Shown: positions 5,520-24,046, numbered from the stretch's first letter. The stretch is 27,343 bases of DNA from a virus (IMGVR_UViG_2734482779_000006:1-27343), one strand, 5' to 3'. Program-made: numbers and translations. The notes: a model not told the origin generated them from the letters alone.

Positions 5520-5520
5520 G

Positions 5521-5548
5521 AAAAACCCACCGTCAGGTGGGTTTTTTG
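5521..5548. terminator. bidirectional intrinsic terminator
   Basis: Stem ACCCACC/GGTGGGT with loop GTCA, flanked by an A-run upstream and a T-run downstream; lies between convergent genes ending at 5519 and 5533. Confidence 0.6.
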
Positions 5549-6230: not shown

Positions 6231-6292
6231 AGCCCCAACTGCGGTAACAGTCAGGGCTTCGGTTGTCGGTAAATCCGTGGAGAAAAACCAAC

Positions 6293-7195: not shown

Positions 7196-7214
7196 CAGAT
7201 AACCAACGCAACGA

Positions 7215-7238
7215 CCCAGCTTCGGCTGGGTTTTTTTA
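7215..7238 (+). terminator. rho-independent terminator after ant
   Basis: Hairpin CCCAGC-TTCG-GCTGGG followed by TTTTTTT. Confidence 0.7.
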
Positions 7239-7305
7239 TGCCCAAAATTCACCGTAGCTACGCTGCGGCGATTCCTTGTATCTGGAGCAAATTAAATGAC
7301 AGACA

Positions 7306-7794
7306 TTATCTAAAACAAGCAAACTCGCCATGATATTTTTCCCTGAATGCAATAGACATCAATTCGGCCAGCTCAATATCATCGGTATACCCAAGGCAAA
7401 TAGACTTACCTTTTAGTTTGAACATAACTTTATATGTGTTTTTCCCTTTAAGAAGATGAACTCCTTTTATACCTGTATTGGATGATGAAACGCTGTTGGT
7501 TTTATTCTGACCTCTGGTTACTTCTCTTAGGTTTGAAATTCTATTGTCATTTTTAACCCCGTTAATATGGTCAATTAACCCTTTAGGCCAGCATCCTTTC
7601 ATATAAAACCAAGCAAGTCGGTGGCAAAGATACGATTTTCCATTAATCCGTATTGATAAGTAGTCGGCCTGTGAGTTCGTCTTAAATCCAGCAACCTTTC
7701 CGATACTGGAGCTACCAGAAGCTATCTTCCAAGTGAAGACGCCTGTTTCTGGGTTGTAGTTGAGTGAAGAGGTTAATTCTTTATGAGTAATCAT
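7306..7794 (-). CDS. HNH homing-type endonuclease (HNH_3/AP2-like)
   Basis: Motifs CHRLAW...GLIDHINGVKNDNRISNLR typical of phage HNH endonucleases; ATG at 7794 has better RBS spacing (AAGGA plus 6 nt) than the ATG at 7800. Confidence 0.75.
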   Translation of the reverse strand: MITHKELTSSLNYNPETGVFTWKIASGSSSIGKVAGFKTNSQADYLSIRINGKSYLCHRLAWFYMKGCWPKGLIDHINGVKNDNRISNLREVTRGQNKTNSVSSSNTGIKGVHLLKGKNTYKVMFKLKGKSICLGYTDDIELAELMSIAFREKYHGEFACFR

Positions 7795-7820
7795 ATTCAT
7801 TCCTTAAATAGAGATTCACT

Positions 7821-9953
7821 ATGTCAAATATTGTGCCAAATGTTATAATTTCAATGCCAAGTCAACTATTTACGTTAGCCAGAAAATTCCAAGCCGCAAG
7901 CAATGGCAAGATATTCATTGGTAAGATAGATTCCGATCCTACGCTCCCACAGAATCAAGTGCAGGTTTATGTGGAGAATGAAGACGGTTCTCACGTTCCT
8001 GTTTCGCAACCAATCATCATTAACGCTGCTGGTTATCCTGTATATAACGGACAGATTGCCAAATTCGTTACCGTGCAAGGCCATTCTATGGCTGTTTATG
8101 ATGCGTATGGTGCACAGCAGTTTTACTACCCAAACATTCTGAAATATAACCCTGACCAATTAGAGTTGAGATTAATTGGACCGGATGGTTTTAAATACAT
8201 AGGGAGATGCAAAAATATTAATGATTTACGTCTAATAGAACCAACAATTGAAAGTCAATTAATAAATGTTATTGAGCATAGTGATGGTGTTGGTATCGGT
8301 GGCGGTTTTTTTGAGTATGATTCAACAGATAATACTTCAGAAGATGATGATGGAATGATAATTGTCACGCCTGGTGGAAAGCGTTGGAAAAGGATATGCA
8401 ATAAAGTGTATGCTGATTATTACGGAATTGTTCCAGATGGAGTAACGGATTATCATGATAAATTGAACAAAGCACTGCAAGCGGCAAAAATGGCAACGGT
8501 GAAAGAGCTTATTCTTTCTGAAGGTACTTACGGGATTAACTCTGCACTGAAAGTACCATCTCACGTTAGATTGCGTGGGGTGGGGAAATTTAAGACCGTT
8601 ATTCTAGCACTACCAACAATGCCGATAATTGAAAACTGTATTCAGAACGAGCTTTATGAATACAGGGTATTCAGGACAAACTACGATACTTCTATCCACA
8701 TAGAAGACTTATGTGTAGATGCTAACAATCGAGCAAGAAATCCGTCAGAAACATGGATGGATGCCACACAGGGGACTACTATTTTATTTTCTACTGTTAG
8801 CCACAGTTCCATCAAAAACGTTTACTGTAAGCGTGGTTTGCAGCATGGTATAGATATTTGTGCCGGGTATTATTTCGATGATGGAAATATTGATAATAAT
8901 GCAGTTGGCGGTAGCTATGACATTGTTGTTGAAGACACTTTTGTTCAAAACAGTCAACTTGACGATCTCATTACAACGCATAATAGCAGTGATATTGTAA
9001 TTAACCGCTGCCGAGTATGGAACGATGACCCATCTCAAGTATGGAATGATAACCAACACGGAATTGAAATTGATGAAGGAAGTTATAACGTCACAGTAAT
9101 GGATTGTTATGCTGAAAATGTTATCACTGGGTTTCAACAAAAAGGTCACTCCACTACAATGCCTGCTAGAAGTGTCCGATTCATTCGTTGTTATGCAAAA
9201 GATTGTGTTTACAGTTTCCAAATTGAACATCGAAACTCACAAACAATACCTTCTGGGCAACATCAACAAGCGCGTAATTCAGTGATTGAGGATTGTACGT
9301 CTGATAACGCAAATAATATTAAATATCAGGCTCTTCACGCTCGCGCGCTTCTTGTTTTAGGTTTTTTTGGTGTTTATGTGCGAAATCTGAGAGTTATAGG
9401 AGGGTCAGGAAATATATATTTAACTGGTGGTGCTAAATATATAAATATCGATGGTGTTCAGTGGACTGGAGGGTATGATGGAGCATCAAGCACCACACAG
9501 GAAGGGTTGATACATATAGAAACTAACGCAGCAGTTGATGATTATTGCATTCGTGATTTTATATGTGAAGATACGGTTACCGTGCCACTTATAAGAGACC
9601 TTACTGACACCACTGTTCAGCGAGAAATATCAAATGTTCGTGGGTATGGCGGGGATAATTCAATCCCAATGATCGCTATTGCGCCGCAGTCTGGTGATAA
9701 TATATCTAATATATCTAATGCGGGTACGTGGGCCTGCGCCATTAGAGATATGGCTAGAGAGGTAGGACAAGGTGATTACGCTCAAAGTGTATCCTTCCAG
9801 AATGGTTTCATTTTTATTTCAGGTAATGGCACCCCAAATGGGGTTATATCTGGCAAACCTGGTGCCGTGTATGTTAACACGGCGAGTGGATTTCAGTATC
9901 TTTGCACGGCTATAGGCAAAAATAACTGGGTTCCAATTACAACCGGAGTTTGA
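7821..9953 (+). CDS. tailspike protein with P22-type N-terminal head-binding domain
   Basis: First ~110 aa ([49 protein letters not shown]...[15 protein letters not shown]...LKYNPDQ) closely parallel the P22 gp9 N-terminus; the remainder is a long divergent receptor-binding region; 710 aa. Confidence 0.9.
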
Positions 9954-10012: not shown

Positions 10013-11170
10013 CTATGATACATTCCCATCAAGCCAGTCCGCCCACCATTGCATCATTTCTCTGCGCTTATCCAGATACTGAGCATGGTTGTAAATCCCG
10101 CGTACAGATCCGCCGTTGGCATGTGCCAGTTGCACTTCAATAGCATCAGCAGGCCATTCGTGCTCGTTCATAATTGTGCTGAATTCATGCCTGAATCCGT
10201 GACCGCTTTCCAGACCTTCATAGCCGATTTGTTTGATCACAAGCAATACCGCGTTCTCGCAGATTGGCTTCTTCTTATCGTTGCGACCGGCAAAAACAAA
10301 CTCTGATACTGGTTTAGTGATTGAGCTTAGCGTAGTGAGAAGTTCAATCACCTGGTCTGACATAGGAACCACATGAATTTTGCGTCCTTTCATCACACTG
10401 GCGTCGATGGTGATAATCCTGTTTTCAAAATCGACGTTCTTCCATTGCATGGAACGAAGCTCTTTAGTTCTTAGGGCTGTATAGCGTAAAACCTTGGTGG
10501 CAATGAGCGATACGATACTTCCTGAAAATGTTGCCAGTGCTTTGTTGAATGCCGGGATCTGGTCTGCAGGAAGAAACGGGAAGTTCTTCTTGCGGTATCC
10601 CTTCATGGCGTCAGCAAGGTCAGGTGCCGGGTTATATTTAGCCCTTCCGGTGACAATAGCGTAACGGAAAACCTCGCCGCATCTTCTGCGTGCTTTGTTG
10701 GCTCGCTCCATTGCCCCGCGATCTTCAAATCTGCGGATTACTTCCAACAGTTGCATCGGCTCAATATCCTGAATTTCAAGGCCGCCGATGATGGGTAAAA
10801 TGTCGTCATCAAACATTTTTGCAAGTTCATTTGCATAGCCTACTGACCAGACTTGCTTCTTGTGCTCGTACCATTCCTTGTAAATGGCGCTAAAGGAGTT
10901 GTTGTTAGACGAAGCCTTTTTCGCCTTTACCGGATCGATGCCAACCGAGATGTCTTTCCTCGCGGTCCATGCTTTATCCCTTGCCTCCTGCAAAGTCATA
11001 AGCGGATATTTTCCGACGGTCAGGATTTTCTCCTTACCGTCAATCTTGTAGCGAAGCTGCCATACCTTTTTCCCGGATACAGGGACATAAAGGTACAGTC
11101 CATTACCATCGAGAAGGCGGTATGGTTTTTCTTTCGGCTTTGCTGCTTCAATCTGCTTAACGGTGAGCAT
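10013..11170 (-). CDS. intS: IntS-type tyrosine integrase (P4-like, argW-specific)
   Basis: 385 aa from MLTVKQIEAAKPKEKPYRLLDGNGLYLYV (integrase N-terminal arm-binding type); catalytic motifs GHGFRHEFST and LAHANGGSVRGIYNHAQY; the 16-bp argW-derived att core lies about 160 bp upstream. Confidence 0.9.
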   Translation of the reverse strand: MLTVKQIEAAKPKEKPYRLLDGNGLYLYVPVSGKKVWQLRYKIDGKEKILTVGKYPLMTLQEARDKAWTARKDISVGIDPVKAKKASSNNNSFSAIYKEWYEHKKQVWSVGYANELAKMFDDDILPIIGGLEIQDIEPMQLLEVIRRFEDRGAMERANKARRRCGEVFRYAIVTGRAKYNPAPDLADAMKGYRKKNFPFLPADQIPAFNKALATFSGSIVSLIATKVLRYTALRTKELRSMQWKNVDFENRIITIDASVMKGRKIHVVPMSDQVIELLTTLSSITKPVSEFVFAGRNDKKKPICENAVLLVIKQIGYEGLESGHGFRHEFSTIMNEHEWPADAIEVQLAHANGGSVRGIYNHAQYLDKRREMMQWWADWLDGNVS

Positions 11171-11330
11171 GGGTAAAAATCCGGTGGGTAAAATTATTTT
11201 ATCCACTTTTTACCCGTCATGTAGTGCGGCTGTCAACGATCTGACGCGAACCATGACGAACTGTAAATCTACGGAAGGCTTGATATTCAGGGGATTTTGC
11301 GGACTGGTACGGATGGGAGCGAACTGATAA

Positions 11331-11346
11331 ATGGTGTCCCCTGCAG
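11331..11346. repeat. att core direct repeat ATGGTGTCCCCTGCAG, identical to the argW 3' end at 23971-23986
   Basis: Exact 16-bp match to the tRNA acceptor/T-arm 3' end; positioned upstream of the intS start in the same way that argW sits upstream of the second integrase. Confidence 0.65.
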
Positions 11347-11568
11347 AAATCATCTTAATTATTATCGTATTGATTTATATGTTATTTATTTTGGCTGTCT
11401 TGTTTTTGTACCCGTTTTGTACCCGTTTTATTCTATTCCCAATTTAAACTTCGATTCTGAAAAGGTGAGTGGGGGAGGTTATCATTTTATGTATCATTGT
11501 TGTAGACACAGAATAATTACTCGCCTATCCTCACTGTATACACACCATAGATACAGGAGTTAACCCAC

Positions 11569-11817
11569 ATGCGCACACAGGTTGTATTGCAAAAATGGGG
11601 TAACAGCATTGCCCTTCGACTAACGGGAAACCTTAAAACCGTTCCGGGTTTTTCAGTGGGTGATATCGTCAACGTTGAAATTAGTGAAAAAGGGCTTTTT
11701 GTAGAAAAGCCTGCACGCCGTCGCCTGAGTGAAGCCGAACTACTCGCCGGGATAACGCCAGTTACAGCGCACGCTGACGAAATTGCCACCCCATTCAATG
11801 AGGAGGTTGATTACTGA
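11569..11817 (+). CDS. MazE/ChpS-family antitoxin (AbrB/SpoVT fold)
   Basis: 82 aa; KWGNSIALRL motif and acidic C-terminus typical of MazE/ChpBI; stop overlaps the toxin start. Confidence 0.8.
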   Translation: MRTQVVLQKWGNSIALRLTGNLKTVPGFSVGDIVNVEISEKGLFVEKPARRRLSEAELLAGITPVTAHADEIATPFNEEVDY

Positions 11818-12161
11818 TGTTTGTACCTAAGCGTGGTGATATTTGCTGGCTGGATTTTGAGCCGCAGAAAGGAAAAGAGATCGGAAAGTATCGCCCGGCA
11901 CTCATACTGTCCCATGAGCAATATAACCGACTCACCGGGTTTGTCATATGCTGCCCCATAAGTACGAGCATACGAAATGCTCCCACAGAAGTTCCGGTAA
12001 CAAATCTGGACGCCCCCAGCGTGGTAGCAACCACACTCATTCAAACCCTTGACTGGCGTCAGCGGAAAGCGCGCTTAATCACAGAGGCAGAAGATGGGGT
12101 ATTTAATGATGTGCTTGAAAGAGTCATTACTCTGATTGGTGGAGAGCATCTGCTTAAGTAA
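11817..12161 (+). CDS. MazF/PemK-family endoribonuclease toxin
   Basis: 114 aa; PKRGDICWLDFEPQKGKEIGKYRPALIL matches the MazF/ChpBK N-terminal signature; start overlaps the antitoxin stop by 1 nt. Confidence 0.85.
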   Translation: MFVPKRGDICWLDFEPQKGKEIGKYRPALILSHEQYNRLTGFVICCPISTSIRNAPTEVPVTNLDAPSVVATTLIQTLDWRQRKARLITEAEDGVFNDVLERVITLIGGEHLLK

Positions 12162-12204
12162 AAGGAGGGCTGAGAAGCCCTCAACGTTACCGGAAATTTC
12201 CTTG

Positions 12205-13476
12205 CTATTCTTTCCAGTCAATCCCATCCAGTAAGCACCCTGCCTCATATTGCCCCACCACCCAGTCAAGGTTACAGGACTCATAGAACGAGAGGCGATT
12301 ATACTGAGGCTCGTTTTTTACCAGGCCACGAACGGAACCACGCTGCCAGTACAGACACAGATTGGCAAGAGGTGTGATCAATACAGCATTGTCCGGGAAA
12401 AATGGAACGGTTACAGCCGGGAGATTCCCCAGAACGGGATTTTTAATGATTTCCTCGTTAAGCAAAATTTCCTGATTCATCTGCGATGGATCAAGACGGT
12501 TTATCAAAGGCCATTGTTTACGGACCAGCGTATTGTGACTGCATACGGCCACAATGCCTTCCTGCCACTGTTCATCAATCATGGATTGCCAGGCATCCAG
12601 AACGAGCGCATCTATCGTATGGTGTGTACCGCGTGTATTACTTTTCGGTGATGAAACAGAAAGGCCGCTGATAACCCTTCCCGCCGCTTCATTTCGAAAC
12701 TTCTGCAACCAGCCCACGCCACAATCGTCACGCCCCGGATATGTTTTAGGGTCAGATTTGGCGGCATAATGTGTGCCGTTAAAACCAATCTGAATTAAAT
12801 CCAGCCATTTCCGGCGTTCAAAAGCGGCCCGCGCACTTCCTTCAAGGCCGTTTGCGGATGCGTGAGCATCGGCATTGTCGTAGTTCAACGCAAAATCAAA
12901 ATTAACCTGCTCGCAGCGGTAGCCCCTTGAAACCAGTGAATGCGCCTGTAGTGGCGAACGGCGCTCGTGAGGTGGCGATGTACGTGCCAACGACCCCGAA
13001 GCGTCTACCAGCACAACCCGACCTGATATATCCGTAACAGGCACGGGAGTTATTTCAGCAAGGAAATTTGCCTGCCATCCACTGGCAAGCGTTGCACTCT
13101 GGCGAGGAACGGGTTCAACTTCTGACGAATAGCGCGCAGTGTCACCGGAAAAGTGCAAATCCTTCGGATGCTTTCCGGTTATCGACTCGATAGCGCAATT
13201 GAAAACCATCTGAGACTGTTGATTTCGTTGTGATACAACAGAATCAGCAGTGCAATTATAACGCTCAATGCCGTCGTTATTACCCCCACCGCTTGCAGTA
13301 TGCAGGGTGTGAAGCTCAAGCTCACGCTCCAGTTTTTGATATTCATTGTCCAGCGCGCGACGCGTCTCATCGCTTATGCTTGCTGTGTTTGCTTTCAGGC
13401 GATTCCGGGACATTAATCCCCTGAGTCGGCTCACTATATCAGCGCCGTGCAAATGTGGAGTATTCAGACCGCCCAT
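12205..13476 (-). CDS. candidate P2-family major capsid protein (gpN-like)
   Basis: 423 aa from the ATG overlapping the upstream stop (TAATG at 13474-13478); segments NFDF...GFNG...GWLQKFRNEA...GNLPAVTVPFFPDNAVLITPLANL...NYxSxNLDWVVGQYEAGCL resemble my recollection of P2-family capsid proteins; sits in a late-type operon downstream of an Ogr/Delta gene; needs confirmation. Confidence 0.45.
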   Translation of the reverse strand: MGGLNTPHLHGADIVSRLRGLMSRNRLKANTASISDETRRALDNEYQKLERELELHTLHTASGGGNNDGIERYNCTADSVVSQRNQQSQMVFNCAIESITGKHPKDLHFSGDTARYSSEVEPVPRQSATLASGWQANFLAEITPVPVTDISGRVVLVDASGSLARTSPPHERRSPLQAHSLVSRGYRCEQVNFDFALNYDNADAHASANGLEGSARAAFERRKWLDLIQIGFNGTHYAAKSDPKTYPGRDDCGVGWLQKFRNEAAGRVISGLSVSSPKSNTRGTHHTIDALVLDAWQSMIDEQWQEGIVAVCSHNTLVRKQWPLINRLDPSQMNQEILLNEEIIKNPVLGNLPAVTVPFFPDNAVLITPLANLCLYWQRGSVRGLVKNEPQYNRLSFYESCNLDWVVGQYEAGCLLDGIDWKE

Positions 13477-14186
13477 TACTGCCACCCCCGGCAGAGTTCT
13501 CTGCCCTCCGCAAGGTCGCGCATTTTTTCTGGATTCTGTCGCGCCGCGCTCCATTGTACAGGTGAAGGGGCGCTCCTGATTGCGCAGCTTACTGAATCCG
13601 GGAGTTTCTCCGGGCAATAACGCAGCGGGCTGGAGGTGTCGCTTTCGGTATCGTTAATCCGGCCGCGAATCATCCCGACACTTTCAGCAGTATCTGCCGC
13701 TTTCAGTGTTTCGCATATTTTCTTTTCTGCGTTATACAGCGGCTGGCCAAGCAGCTCACATAAACCACGAATCAATAACAGAACAGGGGTCAGCTCGTTA
13801 ATCAGTTCGGGAAGTGCTTTTGCAAATATCTCTGCCCGCAACTTATTATCAATACTTTCGTAAGCACAACCAGCCTCTGCCGCGTTATAACGACACTCCA
13901 GTAGCCTGATGCGCGCCTCATCATGCAGCACCCGCAGACGCTCAAGATTTTCTCGCGCCACACCCGCCTGAATGGATAATTTCGCGGAGGCTTCCGTTTT
14001 TACTCCCAGCGCAGACAGGATTGAGTTCTGCCAGTCACGATCGAGAGACTCCAGTTCCCCTTTCGTCTGTTCGATAGTCGCTTCCAGATTGGTGACTAAT
14101 GATTCCTGTTCACTGAGCTTTGCCCTGGCTGTATCAAACTGTGCTTTACATACCTGATGTTCGGCGCTTGCCTGAGTTATATCCAT
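13476..14186 (-). CDS. coiled-coil protein, candidate capsid scaffolding or size-determination protein (gpO/Sid-like)
   Basis: 236 aa, strongly helical and heptad-like N-terminal half; translationally coupled to the capsid-like gene; size close to P4 Sid (244 aa as recalled). Confidence 0.4.
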   Translation of the reverse strand: MDITQASAEHQVCKAQFDTARAKLSEQESLVTNLEATIEQTKGELESLDRDWQNSILSALGVKTEASAKLSIQAGVARENLERLRVLHDEARIRLLECRYNAAEAGCAYESIDNKLRAEIFAKALPELINELTPVLLLIRGLCELLGQPLYNAEKKICETLKAADTAESVGMIRGRINDTESDTSSPLRYCPEKLPDSVSCAIRSAPSPVQWSAARQNPEKMRDLAEGRELCRGWQ

Positions 14187-14350
14187 TATTTGCTCCTGTA
14201 ATACATTTTTTACTTACGCCGATTTTTTCCATATTGCGTAATACATTCCAGCCGATTTTGTTCTCGTAATACGCTCACAATACTGTTGTATTACGCTTTC
14301 TTATATCGCGGGTGTTAAATCCCGACATAAACAATCAGGGAGGCAACACG

Positions 14351-14584
14351 ATGAAAAAACAAAAGAAAATGCGATGCGTATTACGCTGTATTCGTATTCC
14401 GCTCGAAATCGACCATAAAATAAATCAGATATGTAAGGACAGAGAGATGAACTACTCCCAGTGCGTCAGGATGTTTATCAGTCAGGGAATTAAGGCTGGG
14501 GAAAAGCATGAAGAAGACCGCAACGGGCGCAATGTCGCGGGGGATGTGTGGGCCTGGGCAAATGACCAGAACCACACGACATAA
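14351..14584 (+). CDS. small ribbon-helix-helix (CopG/Arc-like) DNA-binding protein
   Basis: 77 aa from ATG 14351 (GGGAGG RBS); RCIRIPLEIDHKINQICKDREMNYSQCVRMFISQG fits a beta-strand then helix-helix RHH pattern; divergent from the scaffold/capsid operon. Confidence 0.5.
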   Translation: MKKQKKMRCVLRCIRIPLEIDHKINQICKDREMNYSQCVRMFISQGIKAGEKHEEDRNGRNVAGDVWAWANDQNHTT

Positions 14585-14634
14585 TACAGAAATAACGCAG
14601 CCGGTCACACTCGCTGGCTGTGTTATACAAATCA

Positions 14635-14817
14635 CTATGAAGTTTTCGACTTCCTGCGCTTAGTGATGCGTACAAACGACTCAAGCGTACAAAAACAGGC
14701 CCCGCACTCAATATTATTGCACTGGTAATACGTTTTGTAGATGTTTTGTTCGTGTTCTTCCAACGAACGACCACGGGTGCGGGCTGAAGCGCCACAGGCC
14801 GGGCAAGGGAAAGACAT
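14635..14817 (-). CDS. Ogr/Delta-family zinc-finger late transcription activator
   Basis: CPACGASARTR...YYQCNNIECGACF is the C-x2-C...C-x4-C Ogr/Delta zinc finger; AGGAG RBS 6 nt upstream of ATG 14817. Confidence 0.8.
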   Translation of the reverse strand: MSFPCPACGASARTRGRSLEEHEQNIYKTYYQCNNIECGACFCTLESFVRITKRRKSKTS

Positions 14818-15387
14818 ATCACGCTCCTCTTACTGGTGTGAAATTTAACCTATTATATCTTCCGCCGCCTCCTCTGGCTGTATCAAATAAATCCGCAACG
14901 GTCGCTGCGTATTACGCGCAGGCACACCGTTCCCATACTCACTCCTCACATTCCCCGTATCAGTTCTCTCTTGCAGTAAGAACGGCTCTGGCTGGCGATA
15001 AAACTAACCCGGTCGGGCATTCCCACAGTCTTTAGCGAAAGATGTAATTTACCCCCTGAAACGCGGGCTGTTCCCCCGTCACCTGCGCGCGAAAAACTCA
15101 CCGTTTTTTGTGCACGCACGAAATCGCCCTCCGGGCGCGCCCGTACTGGGCCGGATGGGCAAAAAGTTACTCTAAAAAATTGTGCAAATTTGTGCACTTT
15201 TGTGCAAACGGGAAGAGGCTGTTTAAAGGCGGTTTTTTGCGTTTTTTTGGTAGCTGTAACGTGATGCGTATTACGTTTTTATTCGCTTCTATGTGAAGAG
15301 ATAACAATGATTTCATTCAATTTATTGTGTTGCACTTTTGTTGCTGGTCTTGCCAGTGTTTTTTTGCCTCTACCTCAAAATCCGGTA

Positions 15388-15690
15388 GGGGGTGCGCAAA
15401 CGGGTTACAAAGGTTACAGCCCCCTAAAACACATATTAACACCATGATTTTAAATGAAATTGTTTGTAACCTTTTTGAGGTTACAGAAGGTTACACGAGG
15501 TTACACCAATTAAAAACATATTAATTATCAATTAGTTATAAGCGTGCTCTGTAACCATGCGTAACCTCTGCATAAAGGTTACATGTAACCCTGTTGTAAC
15601 CCATTTTGTAACCTTTTAAAGGTGTTATAATATATTGATATATAATATATTTTTCTGTTTGTAACCTTTGTAACCCGTTTGCGCACCCCC
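15388..15690. repeat. 30-bp perfect inverted repeat (15388-15417 and 15661-15690) flanking an array of about 14 GGTTAC/GTAACC hexamer iterons
   Basis: Left arm GGGGGTGCGCAAACGGGTTACAAAGGTTAC is the exact reverse complement of the right arm; hexamers between the arms often fall at 10-11 bp phasing; AT-rich core TATAATATATTGATATATAATATA at about 15626-15650. Confidence 0.7.
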
Positions 15691-15940
15691 CCCCGGACTT
15701 TAGCGCGCGCCTTTAAAATGTTAATTAAACTAACTTACTATGTGTCACTCTCATTAACTTTCTGTGACTAAAATGTGTCTCGTCACTGTGGAACTCTTTC
15801 TGATAATCAGGGGGCAAAAAATTGATGGCGGCACCACTGCAATATGGCCACCATTGCATTGCTGTTACCGTTGGTTCTGGCCAACAAAAAAGGCCAGTGG
15901 AAAACTGACCTCTTTTGCTGTGAATGTAGTGTTCTGCGGG

Positions 15941-16942
15941 TTACTCTGCTGGCTCTTTTTCTTTGGCGATATTCGCATTAGCCACTGGATTAAACTTCAG
16001 GACATCAGACAAATAATCAGGCGCAAAATGTGCGTATATCATTGTTTGTTGAATATTTGCATGCCCTAAAACTCGCTGAAGAGCAATTATACTCCCTCCA
16101 TTCATCATAAAATGCGTAGCGAATGTATGCCGTAATACATGAACAGCTTGCCCCTTTGGCAGATCTGGCTTTACAGCGCGAAGCATTTTACGGTATTCAC
16201 CATAATCAACATCAAACAACCCCCCCGAATCTTTTGTTTTGATTTCGCGAACAACTTCATTTGAAATGGGAACAATGCGGACTTTACCGTTTTTGGTTTT
16301 GTTAAATATCACACGATTATCAATGATGTGTTCTGCTCGCAAGCTTTTTGCCTCTCCCCATCTGGCCCCCGTACTAAGGCACAGCAATGTAATTCGACGC
16401 GCATCACCATTAGAAAAATTCAACAAACGAATAATTTCTTCATGTGTCAGATATGTCATTTCTGAAATCTTTCGTTTCATAGCGGGAACAGAACGAACAG
16501 GATTTTTACTATGAAATTCTCCACTCTGGATCAACATGGTGAACATTCCAGCCAATTCCGCTTCATCTCGCTGAATTGTAGAAATTTTGACTCCTGCTCC
16601 CAATCTCTCGCTGCGATACATAGCCATAAACCGCGCATTTATTTGTTCTGCTCGCGGATCTCCCATTTCTTTAATTACTTTCTTTAGTCTTAATTTAACA
16701 TTGTCAGCGTATGGTTTGTTGCGTCCACCCAGTTTCCACCACAGCTCCAAGAGTTCAGAAATGCGCCTGTGATCAGCTGGCTTTTCAAGCCACTCTTTAT
16801 CATTCATATGGCTAAGAACATATCGCTCAAAAGCTAAGGCATCTGCTTTCTTTTTAAAAAGCCGCTGAATTCTGCGTCCATACCGCCCGTTTGGCCTGAT
16901 ATCTACCTTATAGGAGCCATCATCACGCTTTTTAACGGACAT
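15941..16942 (-). CDS. P2-type tyrosine integrase/recombinase
   Basis: 333 aa from ATG 16942 (AGGAGGG RBS 9 nt upstream, 3 nt after the primase stop); N-terminus MSVKKRDDGSYKVDIRPNGRYGRR is typical of P2-family integrases; catalytic HVLRHTFATHF and LGHANIQQTMIYAHF. Confidence 0.85.
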   Translation of the reverse strand: MSVKKRDDGSYKVDIRPNGRYGRRIQRLFKKKADALAFERYVLSHMNDKEWLEKPADHRRISELLELWWKLGGRNKPYADNVKLRLKKVIKEMGDPRAEQINARFMAMYRSERLGAGVKISTIQRDEAELAGMFTMLIQSGEFHSKNPVRSVPAMKRKISEMTYLTHEEIIRLLNFSNGDARRITLLCLSTGARWGEAKSLRAEHIIDNRVIFNKTKNGKVRIVPISNEVVREIKTKDSGGLFDVDYGEYRKMLRAVKPDLPKGQAVHVLRHTFATHFMMNGGSIIALQRVLGHANIQQTMIYAHFAPDYLSDVLKFNPVANANIAKEKEPAE

Positions 16943-16944
16943 AT

Positions 16945-19614
16945 TTAGCGTCCCTCCTTGTAGCTGAATATCCAGCATTTCAATACTTCATTTTCTTTAG
17001 CCTGGGCTACCCCCCTTCCGGTGTTCGCCTGTTTGACTACCTCGCTACGGACTGACTTGTACCCAATCAGTGGCCGAGAACGACCAGTCTTGAGAAGCTT
17101 TATCATTTCGGGATTGGTTTGGATCTTCACATGGTGAATAGCGGCAACCTGCTCCAGTTGCGGGATACTAACGGCAAGCCCATTCTGGGATCCCTTGCCA
17201 AAGTGGTTTACGCCGTATGCTGTTATGCCGTCCAGATAGTCGAACGCCTCCCAGAACGCTATTACTTCCGGCAAGTCATCCGTTACCGCTTTAGCTTGTT
17301 CCGCTGCCATTCGTTCCAGTTCCTGGCATGTGGCATTAAGCCATTCATCCGGGATATCAATAACGCATTTCAGCGCCCTGACCAGCGCAATAAGTTGCGC
17401 GTGATTTTTGGCAATACGCTGATGACGAATATTTTCGCAACCATAAAGGCGGGTTGTTTCAGGATCAGATAGTGCCATAAACGTCTCCATAATCGCCCGT
17501 TCCTGACTTACTGCCCGATGGATAAAACCTGATACCTGCTCAACGGGGTAAAGCTCCAGCCGTTTTGCTGCCAATCGGCTATCTGGTGAGTGGCGTTTTT
17601 TATCGGTGTATACGCGTACCAGACGCTCAATAATTGCCGATGAGGCGTTTACCGTGGCATTCTGCGCAATCACGATAGCCCCCTTAAAAACGGGGTCATA
17701 TGTGGCGTTATCATTGGTTTTAACGCCACGCACCCCAATACCGCCACCGTTATAGAGGCTTTTCAGGTTATCGAAATCAAACGCCCCCCTTTTTTGTGCG
17801 TTATCGCCCCTGTCCGCTTCAATCAGAACAACAGGTAATCCAGCAACCTGTCCAAAAGTTCGCTTCCAGCCTGATTCTGAGCCTTTGGTTGGATCAACAC
17901 CTTCATAGTTGTCACGGCCACACAAACGCCAGCAAAAATCAATTAACGTTGTTTTACCCGTACCTGGCTCTCCGGTAATCTCAAGAAAGGGGTAAGATGT
18001 GTTTTTCTGCCTGATTTGTTCGCTGAACAACGAACCCAACCAGAAAGCCAGGGTAATAATTCCCTTTTCACCAAACGCCAGCCAGAGATCTTCCACCCAG
18101 GATGTTGTAAATTCATCCGGTTTTTTATAGTTAATCTGCAATATTGGTTTTTTATTCAATGGTTTTGCGTTTACGCCATCAATTTCAAAATAATCCTCTT
18201 CATTGATTTCGTAGGTTTTACCATTACAAACCGCGATATCATTAAACAACCACGCACCAATCTCTTTGTTGTATCCGATAAAATCCTGACCGATAACACT
18301 TTTTATTGCGGGAAGGTCATTTTTTATTAATGCGTCAAGGTGCGCAGTTGTTCCGGTATAAATACCGCCTTTTGCTACGTGCAACAGACGTTTTTTAAAT
18401 TCAGATGCGGATGTTAATTGCCCTGATGTAAAGGTGTTTTTCACCGTAGCACCATCCGGGAATGTAATGCGGAAGTAATACCATGCTTCATCCGTATCAT
18501 TGTTTCGAATGTAATAAAGCGGCACTGGGTTACAGTTTGCGATTTCTTTTACAGCGCCGGATTCCTTGAGTGCAATTTTGCGCGCTTCATCTTCGTCAAC
18601 ATTTCGCTCATTAATGACACGCTCAACAGCCTTCATATGGCGCTCAATATCCAGCTTGAACCAGAACACACGGTTATCAAAGGGAAAATGAAATTCCTTT
18701 CGCTCACGAAAGGAAAACATTATTAGTGCCTTATCTCTCGGAGATTTCGCCAGCAATAAATCACCGTAATAACGGTATCTTTTCACATCATGGCCACGTA
18801 GCTTTCCGGCGATGTGTAAATCATTCCAGTCGCGTTTATTGTTGTTTTCACCCGGTAACGCCGCTGCCGTTCTCCAGCCGCCTTCGGCGCTGCGTTCTGC
18901 ATGTTTTTTTGCGTAACGCTCACCCGCACGCCCGTTATCCAGCGCCCACACAATAACCGGACGGGGATTATCTCCGCACAGCTTCGCCAGTTCTTCCAGC
19001 GCCTTATCAGGGTAGTTCACGGCAGACATGACAGAAACGGCCGCAATGCCATTCTGGTTAAGGCTGATGGCATCAAAGACACCCTCACAAATCCAGATTT
19101 CTTTGGCCTTGCTTAAATCTGCTCCCGGATAAGCCCACCACAGCCCCTTGTAGCTGCCGGAAAAATTCGCCTTGCGCGCGAAGCGTTCCGGTCGGTCTAT
19201 GATGCGCTCCCACCACACACCGTCAGCCAGCGTAAAACGCACGGTAGCAGCTTGTTCGCCGCTTTCCTTGTCCTGGTATCGCTCCTGAGTAAATGCGCCC
19301 TTCAGTGGCTCCACAGCAATATTGCGCGCCTCCTGAAGATAAGCTGCCGCCGCTGCGTATGGATCGTCTTTCGTGCTGATATAGCGATCTGACCATGATG
19401 AAAACACATCCGGGTAAAGTTCTTTGGTCAGCAGGTCTGTACCGCATTTATTTTCACGCCCGCAGTGTACGATGTACGGCCTTTCAAGGCTGGTAAACAG
19501 CTCCTTCTTTCCACATTGCGGACAAACACCATACCGAAGGTAGTTATTTTCTTCTTTGAAGTTGTAATCACGGATAAGACGGTTAATAATCTCTTTTCTG
19601 GTATCAGGCTTCAT
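16945..19614 (-). CDS. P4 alpha-like primase-helicase
   Basis: 889 aa; N-terminal zinc-binding CPQCGKK...HCGRENKC; Walker A GEPGTGKTT in the C-terminal helicase region; location and size typical of satellite-phage alpha proteins. Confidence 0.9.
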   Translation of the reverse strand: MKPDTRKEIINRLIRDYNFKEENNYLRYGVCPQCGKKELFTSLERPYIVHCGRENKCGTDLLTKELYPDVFSSWSDRYISTKDDPYAAAAAYLQEARNIAVEPLKGAFTQERYQDKESGEQAATVRFTLADGVWWERIIDRPERFARKANFSGSYKGLWWAYPGADLSKAKEIWICEGVFDAISLNQNGIAAVSVMSAVNYPDKALEELAKLCGDNPRPVIVWALDNGRAGERYAKKHAERSAEGGWRTAAALPGENNNKRDWNDLHIAGKLRGHDVKRYRYYGDLLLAKSPRDKALIMFSFRERKEFHFPFDNRVFWFKLDIERHMKAVERVINERNVDEDEARKIALKESGAVKEIANCNPVPLYYIRNNDTDEAWYYFRITFPDGATVKNTFTSGQLTSASEFKKRLLHVAKGGIYTGTTAHLDALIKNDLPAIKSVIGQDFIGYNKEIGAWLFNDIAVCNGKTYEINEEDYFEIDGVNAKPLNKKPILQINYKKPDEFTTSWVEDLWLAFGEKGIITLAFWLGSLFSEQIRQKNTSYPFLEITGEPGTGKTTLIDFCWRLCGRDNYEGVDPTKGSESGWKRTFGQVAGLPVVLIEADRGDNAQKRGAFDFDNLKSLYNGGGIGVRGVKTNDNATYDPVFKGAIVIAQNATVNASSAIIERLVRVYTDKKRHSPDSRLAAKRLELYPVEQVSGFIHRAVSQERAIMETFMALSDPETTRLYGCENIRHQRIAKNHAQLIALVRALKCVIDIPDEWLNATCQELERMAAEQAKAVTDDLPEVIAFWEAFDYLDGITAYGVNHFGKGSQNGLAVSIPQLEQVAAIHHVKIQTNPEMIKLLKTGRSRPLIGYKSVRSEVVKQANTGRGVAQAKENEVLKCWIFSYKEGR

Positions 19615-19660
19615 ATATAAATCCTCTCCCCCCCCCTGTAAAAATACAGGGGGTTATTCT
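19615..19660 (-). other. stem-loop plus G9 tract in the primase 5' leader
   Basis: On the minus strand CCCCCTGTA-TTTTT-ACAGGGGG hairpin followed by GGGGGGGGGAGAGGA and the ATG; no U-tract, so not a canonical terminator. Confidence 0.4.
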
Positions 19661-19966
19661 TTATAATTGTTTATTGCTTTCTGAAATCCCCACAAACCGT
19701 GCAGCATGTAGAGAGAAAGGGCGCTCAGAGTAATAAATATTGCCTTTTATTCTTTCCAGTTCGCGCAACAAAATGCGCAAAATCGCCTTCATTTGTGAAC
19801 CTGATACAATGTCAGCGCCAGGAGTATCTATTGCAATGTCAGAGAAATAAGATAATAAATCAAGTGTTAAAATAACATCACAAAGAGAGTTATTTGCATC
19901 ATCGGAGATAAATCCAACATATTTAGATAAAATATCATGAATAAACATATTCTGATTTTCAGACAT
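19661..19966 (-). CDS. hypothetical protein (satellite early region)
   Basis: 101-aa ORF directly upstream of the primase leader; no recognisable motif. Confidence 0.4.
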   Translation of the reverse strand: MSENQNMFIHDILSKYVGFISDDANNSLCDVILTLDLLSYFSDIAIDTPGADIVSGSQMKAILRILLRELERIKGNIYYSERPFSLHAARFVGISESNKQL

Positions 19967-20033
19967 AAAAGCTCCCCGACCCGTTAAGGCCGAAATATAA
20001 AATTAATTCAGTTATCAGTTGGCAATTCGGGAA

Positions 20034-20252
20034 TCAGGCAGAAAGCTGCGTAACCTTCAACGCCCTGAAATGTGTCATTCCCAGCTCTTCCAGCCCTTCG
20101 GCTGCGCGGCGTATGGCTTCGCCCGGCCCCGTTCCGTATACCGTTGCGTGTGCATGTTTGGTTAACCCGCGCTTATTAACGGCATAACCCAACACAAAGA
20201 AACGTTTTTCACCACTGCCATTATTTTTACGGGATATTGAACGGCTTTTCAT
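20034..20252 (-). CDS. hypothetical small protein
   Basis: 72-aa ORF at the end of a chain of overlapping small genes. Confidence 0.4.
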   Translation of the reverse strand: MKSRSISRKNNGSGEKRFFVLGYAVNKRGLTKHAHATVYGTGPGEAIRRAAEGLEELGMTHFRALKVTQLSA

Positions 20253-20437
20253 TTCTTCACCTTTACCACTGATGCTGTGAGTTCTTCTTCTGGCAATTGA
20301 TATTTCGGCGCAATTTCTTCCGTATACCTGATAGCGTCCCTTGCCGCTTTTCCTTTTGATTTATATTTACGTATCGTGTGGAAGTTTTCTTCCTCTCCTG
20401 TTACCACATTACGCAATTTAATATGGATCTCGTACAT
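20249..20437 (-). CDS. hypothetical small protein
   Basis: 62 aa from internal ATG (MYEIHIKL...); stop overlaps the next start (ATGA). Confidence 0.4.
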   Translation of the reverse strand: MYEIHIKLRNVVTGEEENFHTIRKYKSKGKAARDAIRYTEEIAPKYQLPEEELTASVVKVKK

Positions 20438-20439
20438 CG

Positions 20440-20622
20440 TTACCCCTCCATGATTTTTACTGCGCATTTGTGGGTTAATCGCCCCTGTTTGTCATTGCGG
20501 GAATATGCCATACGACAGGCATCACGCCATGCATCGTCATAAGTCGGGTATTCCCGGGCATGAATCATCTGGCGAACGTCGCCGTTCTGGCAGTTAATCA
20601 GGGTGATAAGGAGCTTAAACAT
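20440..20622 (-). CDS. hypothetical small protein
   Basis: 60 aa from ATG 20622 with GGGAGG RBS 7 nt upstream (MFKLLITLINCQNGDV...). Confidence 0.4.
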   Translation of the reverse strand: MFKLLITLINCQNGDVRQMIHAREYPTYDDAWRDACRMAYSRNDKQGRLTHKCAVKIMEG

Positions 20623-20788
20623 GGCACGCCTCCCGGACACGAATACGGGCAACAAAGACCAGACGGGATGCCGGAAGCAGGGCGCGCGCTTCGCGCTCAC
20701 TGGCAGCGGTAACGGTATGAAGGCGGATATTTTTACCGTGGCACTGCATAAAGCGCCAGATAAAATCAGGGCGTGTTGATATAGCCAT
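20615..20788 (-). CDS. hypothetical small protein
   Basis: 57 aa from ATG 20788 (GGGAG RBS); the longer 175-aa version upstream is low-complexity and unlikely to be coding. Confidence 0.3.
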   Translation of the reverse strand: MAISTRPDFIWRFMQCHGKNIRLHTVTAASEREARALLPASRLVFVARIRVREACHV

Positions 20789-21204
20789 ATGAAAGGCTCC
20801 CAATTCAAGTTTAAGAAGCCTCACTACAACGCTGTCAAACGTGGTGGCGAGACGTAACAGGGTTGACAGACTGGCAAATTGGGAAACCAGCGAGCATAAA
20901 GCTCCCCCATTACGCCCCGCCATAATACGGGAAAGGGTGGTATTACGGGCACAAAAAAACCGCATTACGGAATACAAGCGGCTACCCGCCAATTTATTCA
21001 GGCTGTCAAACCCGGCACCTGTTTTATGAGGTGCGGGCAAACGATACGCCATGACAAAAAAGCGAGTCAAGCAATATTGCAAATTATTTTGGCGCGATTG
21101 CGCTGAGTGATTGATTTTTAAGAGTAAAAAAGCCATAATCATTTCTGCCTATTATTTCTTATTGTTGGTTTCAGGTGCACTAAATGCACATCCTTGACTG
21201 GTTG

Positions 21205-21236
21205 GCTCGCTAGCTTTAGCGAGCTTCTTTTTTTTG
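21205..21236 (+). terminator. plus-strand intrinsic terminator inside the satellite leader region
   Basis: GCTCGCTA-GCTT-TAGCGAGC hairpin followed by TTCTTTTTTTTG; orientation is antisense to the satellite genes. Confidence 0.5.
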
Positions 21237-21697
21237 CTCTGCTGCCAGTACCCGGCCTCCTTCCCTCACATGTAGTAATGTGCCCGCTCCAGTCAGCTGG
21301 ATAATGCTGTATTCCCGGACATCCGGTTATGATGTTTAAAGCGTTTGTTTGTTTATGCCACGTGGAGAATATCCCCATGTCGCCATTACTTGTATTTATC
21401 ATAACAGTTTACCCAATCCGGTTAATGTAACCGGAATAACTCAATTTCATACACTGTAAATAAATGCTGATTTTGAACTTAGCTCCTTGGAATATATTTC
21501 TTACGTGTGATGTACAGGTGAAAATATCCCTCTGATAGTCCATTTTCTTTTATTGGGTCACATCTGTTTACTCCGGTTCCCTTAACAAGGGTAGAGCATC
21601 TTTTAAACCATGAATGCATCTTTGGTTAAGTGATGTTTCTTATTGAATGAAATGTTTAGGCGCATATCGCGCCATGCTGACTATAAAGTGAAAATAA

Positions 21698-21919
21698 TTA
21701 AGCCTGAAAACGTTGTTGTTTTCTTTCTTCTATCCAGTCGATAATTTCCTCTTCAACCCATGCAACCGCACGAGGGCCTATTTTTATTGGTTTGGGGAAT
21801 ATATCAGATTTTATATCTTCGTAAATTCGAGCTCTCGATCTCCCTGTGATTTCAATGACTCTGGGGAGTCTTATTAATTTTTGAATCCGCCTTTCGCTGG
21901 TCTGTGAGTATGCTGACAT
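21698..21919 (-). CDS. AlpA/Vis-family transcriptional regulator or excisionase
   Basis: IRLPRVIEITGRSRARIYEDIKSDIFPKPIKIGPRAVAWVEEEIIDWIEER follows the AlpA pattern RLPxVxxxTGxxRxTIY...FPxP...GxRxVxWxExEIxxW. Confidence 0.8.
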   Translation of the reverse strand: MSAYSQTSERRIQKLIRLPRVIEITGRSRARIYEDIKSDIFPKPIKIGPRAVAWVEEEIIDWIEERKQQRFQA

Positions 21920-22448
21920 ATTGGCCTCCTGTATATGCTGAACACTTTATGTTAGCTCACAGTGGGAGCATGTAAGATCTCGCGGTCGTCTGCGGGACGA
22001 GAAAAATCATAAACAACGAAAAGCGGATTTGTAAATCTGGTCGATTTTCAGACGGGGTTGACATGGACAGTTAGATTTGTTCCATGTGTGAAATATACAT
22101 TTTAGGACCACTTTAAGCCGCTTTAAACCGCCTGGAAGCGACAAAGAATAACAAGTTAGTGCCAGAAAGGTTTGCTGACTTACCCTTTCAGGCACCAGGA
22201 AAGCCCGTTCTGGGGGATGTAATGCTTGCGAACGCTGGAATAGTGGTTTCTGAAAACAAAAAAAGAATTGAAAATGTGATACATATCACAAAATGATATC
22301 GATAAAATAGTTTGATTTTTTTTGTTTTTATTAAAAGCACTGGTTAATTGTGAAAAATTAATTATAAATCAAATAGATATATCTGTTTTTTTAGGGTAAA
22401 AATCACTAGGTGCTTTTAGTGAGGTCTTATTCTATTGATTTTAAAAGA

Positions 22449-22482
22449 TAAAAAAATCGGCGTGTCCACATATTGTCCACGC
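22449..22482 (-). terminator. rho-independent terminator downstream of the satellite integrase
   Basis: On the minus strand GGCGTGGACA...TGTGGACACGCC hairpin followed by GATTTTTTT. Confidence 0.6.
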
Positions 22483-22530
22483 CTTGAGCTTAATTCAGCC
22501 GCTTGGGGTAGTTTAGTTTGTTGAGTTGAT

Positions 22531-23793
22531 TCAGTCTGTTTCGTTAGCCCATTTAAAATCATAGGGGGCAATATATGCCGTCTTGCAGGTGTCGAGATAA
22601 TCAGCCCACCATTGCAACATTCGGCGGCGTTCCTGCATATGTTCAGCTCTGTGAATGTATGCAGCCCGGACACTGCCTCTTTCCCTGTGACTCATCTGAA
22701 GCTCAACGGCTTCTCTTGTCCACCTGCCTGACTCTGTCAGCGCCGAACAGGCCATAGCTCTGAATCCGTGGCCACAAATATCTTTTTTTGTGTCGTATCC
22801 CATGTGGCGTAATGCCTTGTTAATGGTGTTTTCGCTCATTGGTTTTATCTGGTAATGGTCGCCGGGGAAAATAAACAATTCATCACCGGATATATTTCTT
22901 ATATCGTCAAGAAGCTGCATGGCCTGAGTGGGCAAAGGGATGGCGTGAGGGGTTCCCATTTTCGTTCCACGATATGAATATTTTACGCCTTCTATTTTTT
23001 CGCGTTCTGCTGGTATTACCCACATTGATTTATCAAAGTCAATTTCATTCCAACGAGCAAAACGCAATTCACTTGAGCGAATAAAAATTAATAAATTTAA
23101 TTTTAGTGCAAATTGCGTTAATAACCGTCCATTCATCTTGTGGTGGTAATCATTTATTTTGCCAAGTAATTCAGGTAATCGCTCAAGGGGAAGAGCGGGG
23201 CGATGTTTGGTTTTATTAGTTTCGATTGCACCGTTCAGTTCCTGCGCTGGATTGTATTTAATCATTCCATTCTGTACAGCGTAGCGCATAATGGCGTTCA
23301 TTCGCTGCTTGTTACGTGATGCTGTCTCAAGCACTCCTTTATCTTCCATTTTGCGTAAAGGAATCAGTAGATCCATGGTTGTGATCTCGTTAATTGGCCT
23401 TTTACCAAGAATGGGGAAGATGTGGTTTTCCAGGTCTTTTAAGACTTTTTGCGCGTGTAATTCGCTCCAGCCCTTTTTCCGGCTGTGCCATTCTCTGGCA
23501 ACGTCTTCAAAAAGCACTATTTGAGGTTTTGGTGTGTGCAGTGGGTCAATGCCTTTAGCCAGGCTCGCCAGATATTCATCACGAGCGTTCCTTGCCTGTG
23601 CAAGTGTTACGGCAGGATAAATGCCTAAAGCTCGGGTCGTTTCTTTACCGTTGATAACCTTGCGAAAGCGCCAGTATTTTGAGCCGTTGGGGTGAACATA
23701 GAGATACAGGCCTTTCCCGTCACGAAGTTTTTTAATTTTGTTGTTGTCCTTATCTGGTTTGGCGTTACGTACAGCTACATCAGTCAGTTTCAT
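22531..23793 (-). CDS. IntS-family tyrosine integrase of the P4-like satellite
   Basis: 420 aa from MKLTDVAVRNAKP (GGAGGA RBS); N-terminal arm-binding type; catalytic GHGFRAMACS and SVRAAYIHRAEH; C-terminal MLQWWADYLD parallels intS MMQWWADWLD; immediately downstream of argW. Confidence 0.9.
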   Translation of the reverse strand: MKLTDVAVRNAKPDKDNNKIKKLRDGKGLYLYVHPNGSKYWRFRKVINGKETTRALGIYPAVTLAQARNARDEYLASLAKGIDPLHTPKPQIVLFEDVAREWHSRKKGWSELHAQKVLKDLENHIFPILGKRPINEITTMDLLIPLRKMEDKGVLETASRNKQRMNAIMRYAVQNGMIKYNPAQELNGAIETNKTKHRPALPLERLPELLGKINDYHHKMNGRLLTQFALKLNLLIFIRSSELRFARWNEIDFDKSMWVIPAEREKIEGVKYSYRGTKMGTPHAIPLPTQAMQLLDDIRNISGDELFIFPGDHYQIKPMSENTINKALRHMGYDTKKDICGHGFRAMACSALTESGRWTREAVELQMSHRERGSVRAAYIHRAEHMQERRRMLQWWADYLDTCKTAYIAPYDFKWANETD

Positions 23794-23971
23794 TATGTTG
23801 ATCCTCCAGACGGGTACAAATAAAAATCGAACCAAGCGTACCCGTTTTTATACCCATTTTAATATGGGCTTCAGGCAAATTTAACGAGAGATAACGAGAC
23901 AATGGAAGAGATTTAACTCATTGAAAAACAATGGGTAATGGTTTTTTCTGAGAGATTGCGAGAAGTTGCGA

Positions 23972-24046
23972 TGGTGTCCCCTGCAGGAATCGAACCTGCA
24001 ATTAGCCCTTAGGAGGGGCTCGTTATATCCATTTAACTAAGAGGAC
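23972..24046 (-). tRNA. argW: tRNA-Arg (anticodon CCU)
   Basis: 75-nt sequence GTCCTCTTAGTTAAATGGATATAACGAGCCCCTCCTAAGGGCTAATTGCAGGTTCGATTCCTGCAGGGGACACCA on the minus strand; cloverleaf with CCU anticodon and encoded CCA end. Confidence 0.9.

Follow-up and report, generated by a model that had tools for sequence, protein, structure and literature searches.

The tRNA gene argW in a virus stretch of 27,343 nucleotides (nt) (IMGVR_UViG_2734482779_000006:1-27343; this whole stretch is called the window) is followed by a P4-like satellite and then by a P22-like prophage, and this locus (10013-24046) is the subject of the present analysis. The arrangement probably reflects an ordinary tandem insertion, in which the 3' end of argW would have been the target of site-specific recombination for each of two independent elements and the satellite would rely on a P2-family helper phage, not on its neighbour. 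Tandem occupancy of argW by two separate integrative elements had been proposed in an earlier sequence-only reading of this DNA and is borne out here, each element having its own integrase of the P4/IntS type and the same core bounding both. The features that define the locus are these:

1-9953, plus strand: late and immI-type region of the P22-like prophage (gp7, gp20, gp16, sieA, mnt/arc, ant, HNH, tailspike; PHROGs), running beyond the window
10013-11170, minus strand: intS, integrase of the KplE1/HK620/Sf6/CUS-3 recombination module (Pfam; named intS in annotated homologues)
11171-11330: intS attL arm, also the intS promoter region, carrying arm sites of the GGGTAAAA type (at 11175, 11190 and 11211); 98.2% identical to K-12
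11331-11346: middle core copy, exact match, hybrid of satellite attR and intS-prophage attL
11352-11430: distal arm of the satellite, with TTTTGTACCCG as a tandem pair (11405-11430), identical in a strain with the satellite only (L002, see below)
22531-23793, minus strand: satellite integrase, 420 aa, P4 type (Arm-DNA-bind_3, Phage_int_M and Phage_integrase; Pfam)
23794-23970: satellite int-proximal arm with TACCC(G/A) repeats at 23816, 23839, 23851 and 23937 (motif scan)
23971-23986: core copy nearest argW (satellite attL), exact match, reverse complement of the published KplE1 core CTGCAGGGGACACCAT
23972-24046, minus strand: argW, tRNA-Arg(CCT), the single tRNA in the window (ARAGORN), whose 3' end is the attachment target common to both elements

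Two elements at one argW core

The 16-mer ATGGTGTCCCCTGCAG consists of 15 nt of the argW 3' end and 1 nt downstream, and it reads in order as one downstream base, CCA, the discriminator base, the 3' acceptor strand and four T-stem bases. It is present in the window in two exact copies (11331-11346 and 23971-23986) with no third at up to 2 mismatches, and none is expected by chance, as 100 dinucleotide shuffles of the window gave 0 matches. Past the core the repeat extends as (G/A)AATC, making 21 bp with a single mismatch. The exact recurrence of the argW end about 160 bp upstream of intS, which had been seen in the sequence-only reading, is thus confirmed, and so is the same arrangement upstream of both integrases: the distance from core to ATG is 161 bp for intS (ATG 11170) and 178 bp for the satellite int (ATG 23793), and both genes lie in the direction of argW on the minus strand. 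Related genomes, in which absence of the repeat would have spoken against the proposal, retain the distal repeat, some of them with a C-run that is 1 nt shorter. At the distal or middle core, the window reads CCCC where strains ETEC4067 and HCP5S3_I2 read CCC; this polymorphism may mark the position of strand exchange, or else independent insertion events.

The intS side of the locus is known biology. The KplE1/CPS-53 prophage of E. coli K-12 has CTGCAGGGGACACCAT as the core duplicated at its two ends (PMC2951348), so that the 16-bp repeat is already published as the KplE1 core. IntS and the directionality factor TorI form a module common to KplE1, HK620, Sf6 and CUS-3, in which attL overlaps the intS promoter (PMC2951348; PMC3509656). 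Positions 11131-11351 of the window are 98.2% identical to K-12 strains, and the homology ends at 11351, where K-12 enters argW. TorI and the far core copy are outside the window; both are seen in ETEC4067 (locus L001), the far core adjoining torI. The attP predicted for the IntS phage (intS arm, core, then ACATCTACTT; junction …CTGATAA-core-ACATCTAC…) is present in 14 IMG/VR contigs, 11 of them of 37-41 kb. Four were inspected, in which IntS is 98-99% and TorI 100% identical and the order is intS - attP - torI, with a tailspike match upstream of the attP module in three. The label of P22-family prophage is correct for the visible part: PHROG matches of this region have E from 1e-88 to 1e-280, the tailspike has the P22 head-binding N-terminus, and DNA identity to P22 is 84% across gp16-ant, with mosaic matches also to Kapi1, CUS-3 and phiv205-1. 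An HNH endonuclease gene (7306-7800, minus strand) lies between ant and the tailspike gene on the opposite strand.

The boundaries of the two elements are evident from strains that carry one of them. The satellite extends over 12.6 kb (11347-23970), and strain HCP5S3_I2 (locus L002) has the same 12.6-kb element at argW without any intS prophage. Its distal end reads TGGTGT-CCCTGCAGAAATC…, the DNA to the right being identical to the window from 11347 on and the DNA to the left being the chromosomal flank that is found after the far core of the prophage in ETEC4067, a tandem with all three core copies. Accordingly, the left side of the middle site in the window matches the K-12 attL (98%) and its right side matches the attR of the satellite-only strain: the middle core is an exact hybrid, with the IntS attL arm on the left and the satellite distal arm on the right. 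Moreover, the cargo of the satellite (window 11485-21282) is also found between hpt and gcd with another integrase and regulator (L003, strain OkiPb01677), and ETEC4067 has one satellite copy at argW and a second at hpt (L081). Since the satellite can stand by itself at argW, and behind another integrase at hpt, the two elements are independent units.

Some further features of these loci are worth describing. The hpt-gcd copies (L003, L081) have a different 399-aa integrase, an additional 350-aa protein and a different helix-turn-helix regulator; swapping of the integrase module has been reported in P4-like satellites (PMC8628076). Strains with the satellite only have, on the far flank of argW (L002 5639-5791 and upstream), a DUF4942 fragment and csc sucrose-utilisation genes, a further sign that the argW locus is a general insertion hotspot.

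To put the tandem in a population context, 5,426 complete E. coli genomes were surveyed. The intS/core junction query matched 1,930 of them, 11 with the full intS - core - satellite-end junction, leaving about 1,919 genomes (occupancy about 36%) in which intS directly adjoins argW. The junction of satellite int and argW was found in 27 genomes, and the satellite arm away from argW in 0. Tandems thus make up 11 of the 27 satellite carriers (41%) against an overall intS occupancy of about 36% (Fisher odds ratio (OR) 1.25, p 0.55), and 16 of the 27 argW satellites have no intS prophage. The tandem rate is that of independent occupancy, so co-location is uninformative on the helper. The suggestion that a site and integrase family shared with a P22-like phage bear on the choice of helper loses its ground, since the tandem is as frequent as the background and the satellite also occurs without an intS prophage. 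Island mapping routinely turns up tandem arrays that have an internal att copy (PMC10111431; PMC8628076). At least four kinds of tandem were distinguished, with the satellite proximal to argW in each:

Window: tailspike immediately before intS
ETEC4067: intS prophage with gtr genes, IS1 and pseudogenes
E94: wzy-like gene; satellite int interrupted by IS5
STEC308: intS truncated; satellite a rearranged variant

In the three complete tandem genomes inspected (L001, L004 and L015), the intS prophage is degraded (IS1/IS5, truncated genes, truncated intS).

The map could have arisen as follows. A P22-like phage with the IntS-TorI module, its attP between torI and intS, would have inserted first, doubling the 16-bp core and placing intS, with its promoter inside attL, next to the reconstituted argW. 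The satellite, with its own P4-type integrase and AlpA/Vis and an argW-derived core in its attP, would then have inserted at the argW-proximal core in the regenerated tRNA end, giving the final order argW - satellite - hybrid core - intS prophage - third core, the last outside the window. The reverse history would yield the same map. In that history the satellite came first and the IntS phage inserted into the distal core of the satellite, not into argW itself, which seems unlikely to us. The final order is identical and the sequence dates neither event, and the distal satellite core has a native chromosomal flank, which IntS might prefer. Against this, the intS prophages of ETEC4067, E94 and STEC308 are decayed (insertion sequence (IS) elements, pseudogenes) and presumably older, and intS lysogens are about 70 times commoner than satellite carriers, so that a satellite meeting a lysogen is the likelier event. 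We infer that the prophage was probably in place when the satellite arrived.

Integrases, arm sites and excision

IntS and the satellite integrase (Int) have identical Pfam domains and align with 33% identity across 400 residues (E 6e-72; arm domain 42%, central 38%, catalytic 34%), with the tails WWADYLD and WWADWLD, respectively. The common arm-binding N-terminus and WWAD(W/Y)LD tail that had been noticed by eye therefore belong to homologous proteins. The term paralogous stands as far as homology is concerned and fails in the recent relationship that it implies, since the satellite Int is nearer to P4 Int (53%, E 9e-135) than to IntS (33%); IntS itself is 35% identical to P4 Int. The locus offers a clean case of integrases only 33% identical converging on a single tRNA core. 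Both integrases are of the subfamily whose target is the segment from the T loop to the 3' end of tRNA genes, and for this reason each element would have to carry the same 16-21 bp; each keeps both of its own arms, so that separate excision is to be expected.

The arms themselves differ. TACCC(G/A) occurs in 4 copies per 300 bp at the satellite int-proximal arm against 1.35 per kb window-wide, and the satellite arms carry GTACCCGTTTT-type repeats, including the tandem pair at 11405-11430 and the int-near pair at 23839/23851. In the IntS arms the motif is TTTTACCC(G/A) (equal to GGGTAAAA), which forms a tandem pair at the far end in ETEC4067 and three sites near intS, in line with the TAAA in the published P' sites. 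The P4 arm repeat TGGGGGCA is unrelated to the motifs of either. When the two int-proximal arms were aligned to each other, no alignable similarity was found except for the core and the short TACCC motif.

In the search for excision junctions that had been proposed as a check, the attP of the IntS phage was found in viral contigs (the 14 mentioned above), while the attP predicted for the satellite (…AGTTGCG-core-AAATCATC…) had 0 matches in viral contigs and 0 in metagenomes, and the composite junction (satellite int arm and prophage far arm) had 0 matches in viral contigs. With no satellite excision junction found, the case for mobility of the satellite comes from its comparative placement only.

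These data also bear on cross-talk between the elements, in which IntS/TorI would act on the satellite arms, or the reverse, and induction of the prophage would co-excise or mobilise the composite. In favour of such cross-talk are the identical core, the tandem pairs of TACCC(G/A) (= GGGTA) in the arms of both elements and the 42% identity of the arm-binding domains. We nevertheless judge it quite improbable, because the full motifs differ (IntS GGGTAAAA, the published IntS P' arm sites containing TAAA, against GGGTAC/GGGTAT of the satellite), each element has a separate directionality factor, and the composite junction is absent from the viral contigs against 14 with the IntS-phage attP.

Gene content of the satellite and its probable helper

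Within the satellite, the following features were annotated from the integrase side to the distal end:

21698-21919, minus strand: AlpA/Vis-like regulator, probable excision factor of the satellite (PF05930 E 5.5e-17; 36% to P4 ORF88)
20615-21142, minus strand: Icd-like protein (NCBIfam NF033153)
16945-19614, minus strand: Toprim primase, 889 aa, alpha-analogous replicase (Toprim_2/3)
15941-16978, minus strand: second tyrosine recombinase, 345 aa, paralogue of P2-family Int (51% to P2 Int, E 1e-110)
15403-15675: GGTTACA iteron cluster, candidate replication origin (13 of the window's 17 heptamer copies)
15047-15209: block common to P88-like Peduoviridae, candidate cos/packaging site (about 80% identical to P88, 520873, 503458 and P884B11)
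14635-14817, minus strand: Ogr/Delta-type zinc-finger activator, 60 aa (PF04606 E 2.4e-11; 37-39% to P2 Ogr / P4 Delta)
13476-14186, minus strand: 236-aa protein, possible distant Sid homologue (weak similarity), translationally coupled to the capsid gene
12205-13476, minus strand: P2-family major capsid paralogue, 423 aa (PF05125 E 7.6e-72; 34% to P2 gpN, E 8e-63)
11569-12161, plus strand: MazE/MazF toxin-antitoxin pair at the distal end (PemK_toxin; annotated homologues)

The description of this element as P4-like holds for its Int, AlpA/Vis and Ogr/Delta finger and fails elsewhere: it lacks Psu and epsilon, a Sid is doubtful, and its primase differs in the C-terminal half. It is a fair working label and not a strict membership, as two of the seven defining components are not found. 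With regard to Psu, no PF07455, BLAST or tblastn match was found in the satellite, and the capsid paralogue sits at the Psu position. No Pfam or BLAST match to epsilon/Ash was found among the small open reading frames (ORFs) scanned, and a Klebsiella relative of the satellite has Phage_ASH; P4 cI has no BLAST or Pfam match in the satellite. The 236-aa protein and Sid are of equal length and both adjoin delta, and their similarity is weak (BLASTP 26% over 151 aa, E 0.22; hhalign E 0.004, probability 8%); to Psu the 236-aa protein shows no similarity (hhalign E 0.85). The zinc finger is a single one of 60 aa, as against the 166 aa of P4 Delta. The BLAST match of the primase to P4 alpha spans 27 aa, the similarity being confined to the primase half; relatives of this primase have Zn_Ribbon_Prim, Toprim_3 and DUF927, and P4 alpha has D5_N/DUF5906/Pox_D5 instead. 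The 13 GGTTACA/TGTAACC heptamers (15403-15675), flanked by the inverted repeat GGGGGTGCGCAAACGGGTTACA…, likely constitute an iteron origin for the Toprim primase.

The capsid paralogue has an N-terminal extension of about 85 aa, in which no homology to P2 gpO, gpM, gpP, P4 Sid or Psu was found. All of its 496 matches in phage records are below 60% identity, and the best listed are P2-type major capsid proteins (33-39%). Long homologues (393-497 aa) form a clade in E. coli, Salmonella, Klebsiella, Erwinia and Pectobacterium, and the layout in Klebsiella and Salmonella is AlpA … primase … variable cargo … Ogr_Delta … ~240-aa protein … capsid. With the Int of Klebsiella, Yersinia and P88-like P2-family phages, the 345-aa recombinase shares 55-58% identity. 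Three IMG/VR contigs of 11-15 kb with the capsid paralogue were considered as evidence of packaging and not used, since their identifiers suggest isolate provirus calls.

Several side features accompany these genes. Salmonella relatives have HicAB where the E. coli satellite has the second recombinase. The MazE/MazF pair lies between the capsid gene and the att core and is kept in the hpt-site copies and in the Salmonella relatives. Repeated GTAATACG/CGTATTAC motifs at 14198-14377, 14908 and 15267, upstream of the 236-aa/capsid operon and around a divergent ORF (14312-14584, plus strand), may be operator sites for some regulator.

The presence of P2-type Int, gpN and Ogr homologues might suggest that the 12.6-kb element is, instead of a satellite, what is left of a decayed P2-like prophage, or else an integrative island of a generic kind. 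This appears very unlikely, because one and the same compact layout with intact ORFs recurs at different sites in E. coli, Salmonella and Klebsiella, because its P2-type proteins are just 34-58% identical to any phage protein, which does not fit recent decay, and because AlpA, a primase-type replicase, iterons and a conserved non-coding block shared with phages are standard satellite make-up.

The non-coding block of about 160 bp is informative about the helper. Within the phage collection it is found only in P88, 520873, 503458, 500465-2, P884B11, Shae_phiSM and phiT5282H (P88-like phages and close relatives). The portal gene precedes the block by about 290 bp, both in P88 and in a P2-family prophage of O157:H7 strain 493/89, and cos of P2 has the same portal-proximal position; the linear P884B11 record has its ends within the block. 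The block is also present in satellite relatives (Salmonella 79%, Klebsiella 72% identity), in which the variable cargo adjoins it; the defence hotspots of P2 and P4 are placed beside cos (PMC13586616). By its position and similarity, the block is a candidate cos. It carries three TTGTGCA repeats. Among the 5,426 E. coli genomes 1,123 have the block, 56 of satellite type (at least 92% identity) and the others at about 60-90%.

From this block and from the Ogr/Delta, gpN and Int homologues, we infer that the helper is probably a P88-like phage of the P2 family, which the satellite would exploit via its Ogr/Delta activator, its diverged gpN-type capsid and the packaging-site-like block. The classical expectation of a P2-like helper for P4-type satellites is thereby upheld and, on sequence evidence, sharpened to P88-like phages. 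P22 packages by the headful mechanism, and a P22-like helper would require piracy of the pac/TerS type, as in the strategies of Staphylococcus aureus pathogenicity islands (SaPIs) as well as phage-inducible chromosomal islands (PICIs). No TerS/pac-type gene for a headful packager was found among the satellite genes in Pfam and NCBIfam scans. The helper hinted at before, the P22-like neighbour, is thus not the one to which the genes of the hijacking type and the block at the cos position point, all of them being P2-family or P88-like. That the P22-like prophage is the helper, common site and integrase family holding the two together, is hardly credible: physical adjacency, the common core, the 42% identical arm-binding domains and partly similar arm motifs speak for it, but the tandem state is not enriched, most argW satellites (16/27) have no intS prophage, the same satellite sits at hpt, the neighbouring prophage is degraded in the complete genomes inspected, and the satellite has P2-family Ogr, capsid and cos-position block and no TerS/pac-type function. 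Mobilisation of the satellite by P88-like phages is a testable prediction. As many as about 20% of E. coli genomes may harbour such phages, as estimated from the 1,067 non-satellite-type copies of the block in 5,426 genomes, one of which was checked and is a P2-family prophage.

Besides the missing satellite junction, several observations count against tandem insertion with a P88-like helper as set out here. The 11 tandem genomes represent few independent events, so that the constant argW-proximal position of the satellite is statistically weak. The GGGTA/TACCC core is common to the arm motifs of both integrases, and there is a small chance, judging from the motifs, that each would recognise the arms of the other. 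P2 and P4 records begin with the same 19-mer, their common cos sequence, and this 19-mer (GGCGAGGCGGGGAAAGCAC) is absent from the satellite at up to 3 mismatches and in short-word BLAST with the P2/P4 cos regions. The P2-type TGT-N12-ACA dyad is not found upstream of the capsid operon, its single copy in the satellite being at 19865. The ends of the P884B11 record within the block may be arbitrary. Finally, an extra copy of the block is commoner in satellite carriers (39/56 vs 1067/5370, OR 9.3); this excess was not relied on because it is confounded by second satellites (the extra copy of ETEC4067 is the hpt satellite) and by clonal pig enterotoxigenic E. coli.

Comparison with known systems

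The prophage resembles the KplE1 (CPS-53)/HK620/Sf6/CUS-3 module in the identical 16-nt core, in the direction of intS along argW and in an attL that lies over the promoter; its attL region matches K-12 at 98% identity and its IntS that of free phages at 98-99%, and torI and intS flank attP. It differs in that attL here abuts the distal arm of another element and not argW. Moreover, KplE1 of K-12 is a 10-kb remnant, whereas the visible prophage in the window, which is without gtr genes, looks intact.

The satellite shares with the P4/P2 system a P4-type integrase (53%), Vis/AlpA, an Ogr/Delta finger, the 3' end of a tRNA gene as integration site, a Toprim primase as replicase together with a candidate iteron origin, and a non-coding block common with a P2-family phage at the position of cos. 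Unlike P4, it is without Psu and epsilon, its Sid is at best very distant, the helicase half of its replicase is different and its Delta has a single finger; it has a gpN-type capsid and P2-type Int paralogues, both lacking in P4, and in place of the cos 19-mer its block is P88-type. It resembles the capsid-forming PICIs (cfPICIs) as a small integrase-AlpA-primase island that encodes a phage-derived capsid homologue. The head module of cfPICIs is complete, with protease, portal/connectors, adaptors, TerS and TerL (PMC10085698). The satellite shows only the capsid paralogue and one 236-aa protein upstream of it, both P2-type; in Pfam and NCBIfam scans the capsid paralogue was the only part of a complete head module to be detected.

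No P4-type satellite with a P2 capsid gene was found described in the literature covered, the coverage of which is incomplete. We tentatively suggest that the satellite could belong to an undescribed P4-type subfamily in E. coli, Salmonella and Klebsiella, which would have its own diverged P2-family capsid in place of Psu and a packaging-site block shared with P88-like phages, and would build or re-size heads. It is conceivable, at a similarly modest level of confidence, that its members borrow portal, terminase and tail from a P88-like helper, many of them having a P2-type Int paralogue. If true, satellites of the P2/P4 side would have a capsid-forming strategy in minimal form. The seven-gene P4 model probably under-calls this capsid-bearing P4-type subfamily, and the capsid-bearing satellite is more interesting than the tandem itself.

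The tandem matters mainly for annotation. It agrees with tandem islands and PICIs at one att site, as mapped by TIGER/Islander, in having serial elements with an internal att that resembles the terminal ones (PMC10111431; PMC8628076): the internal att copy is present and each unit occurs alone, the satellite in HCP5S3_I2 and intS in about 1,919 genomes. It is unlike them in its partners, which are not two like elements but a podovirus prophage of full size and a satellite, their integrases being only 33% identical. An intS 'prophage' region at argW can conceal a second, presumably separately mobile element, and since the middle core is a hybrid site, callers of prophages and islands should split the two.

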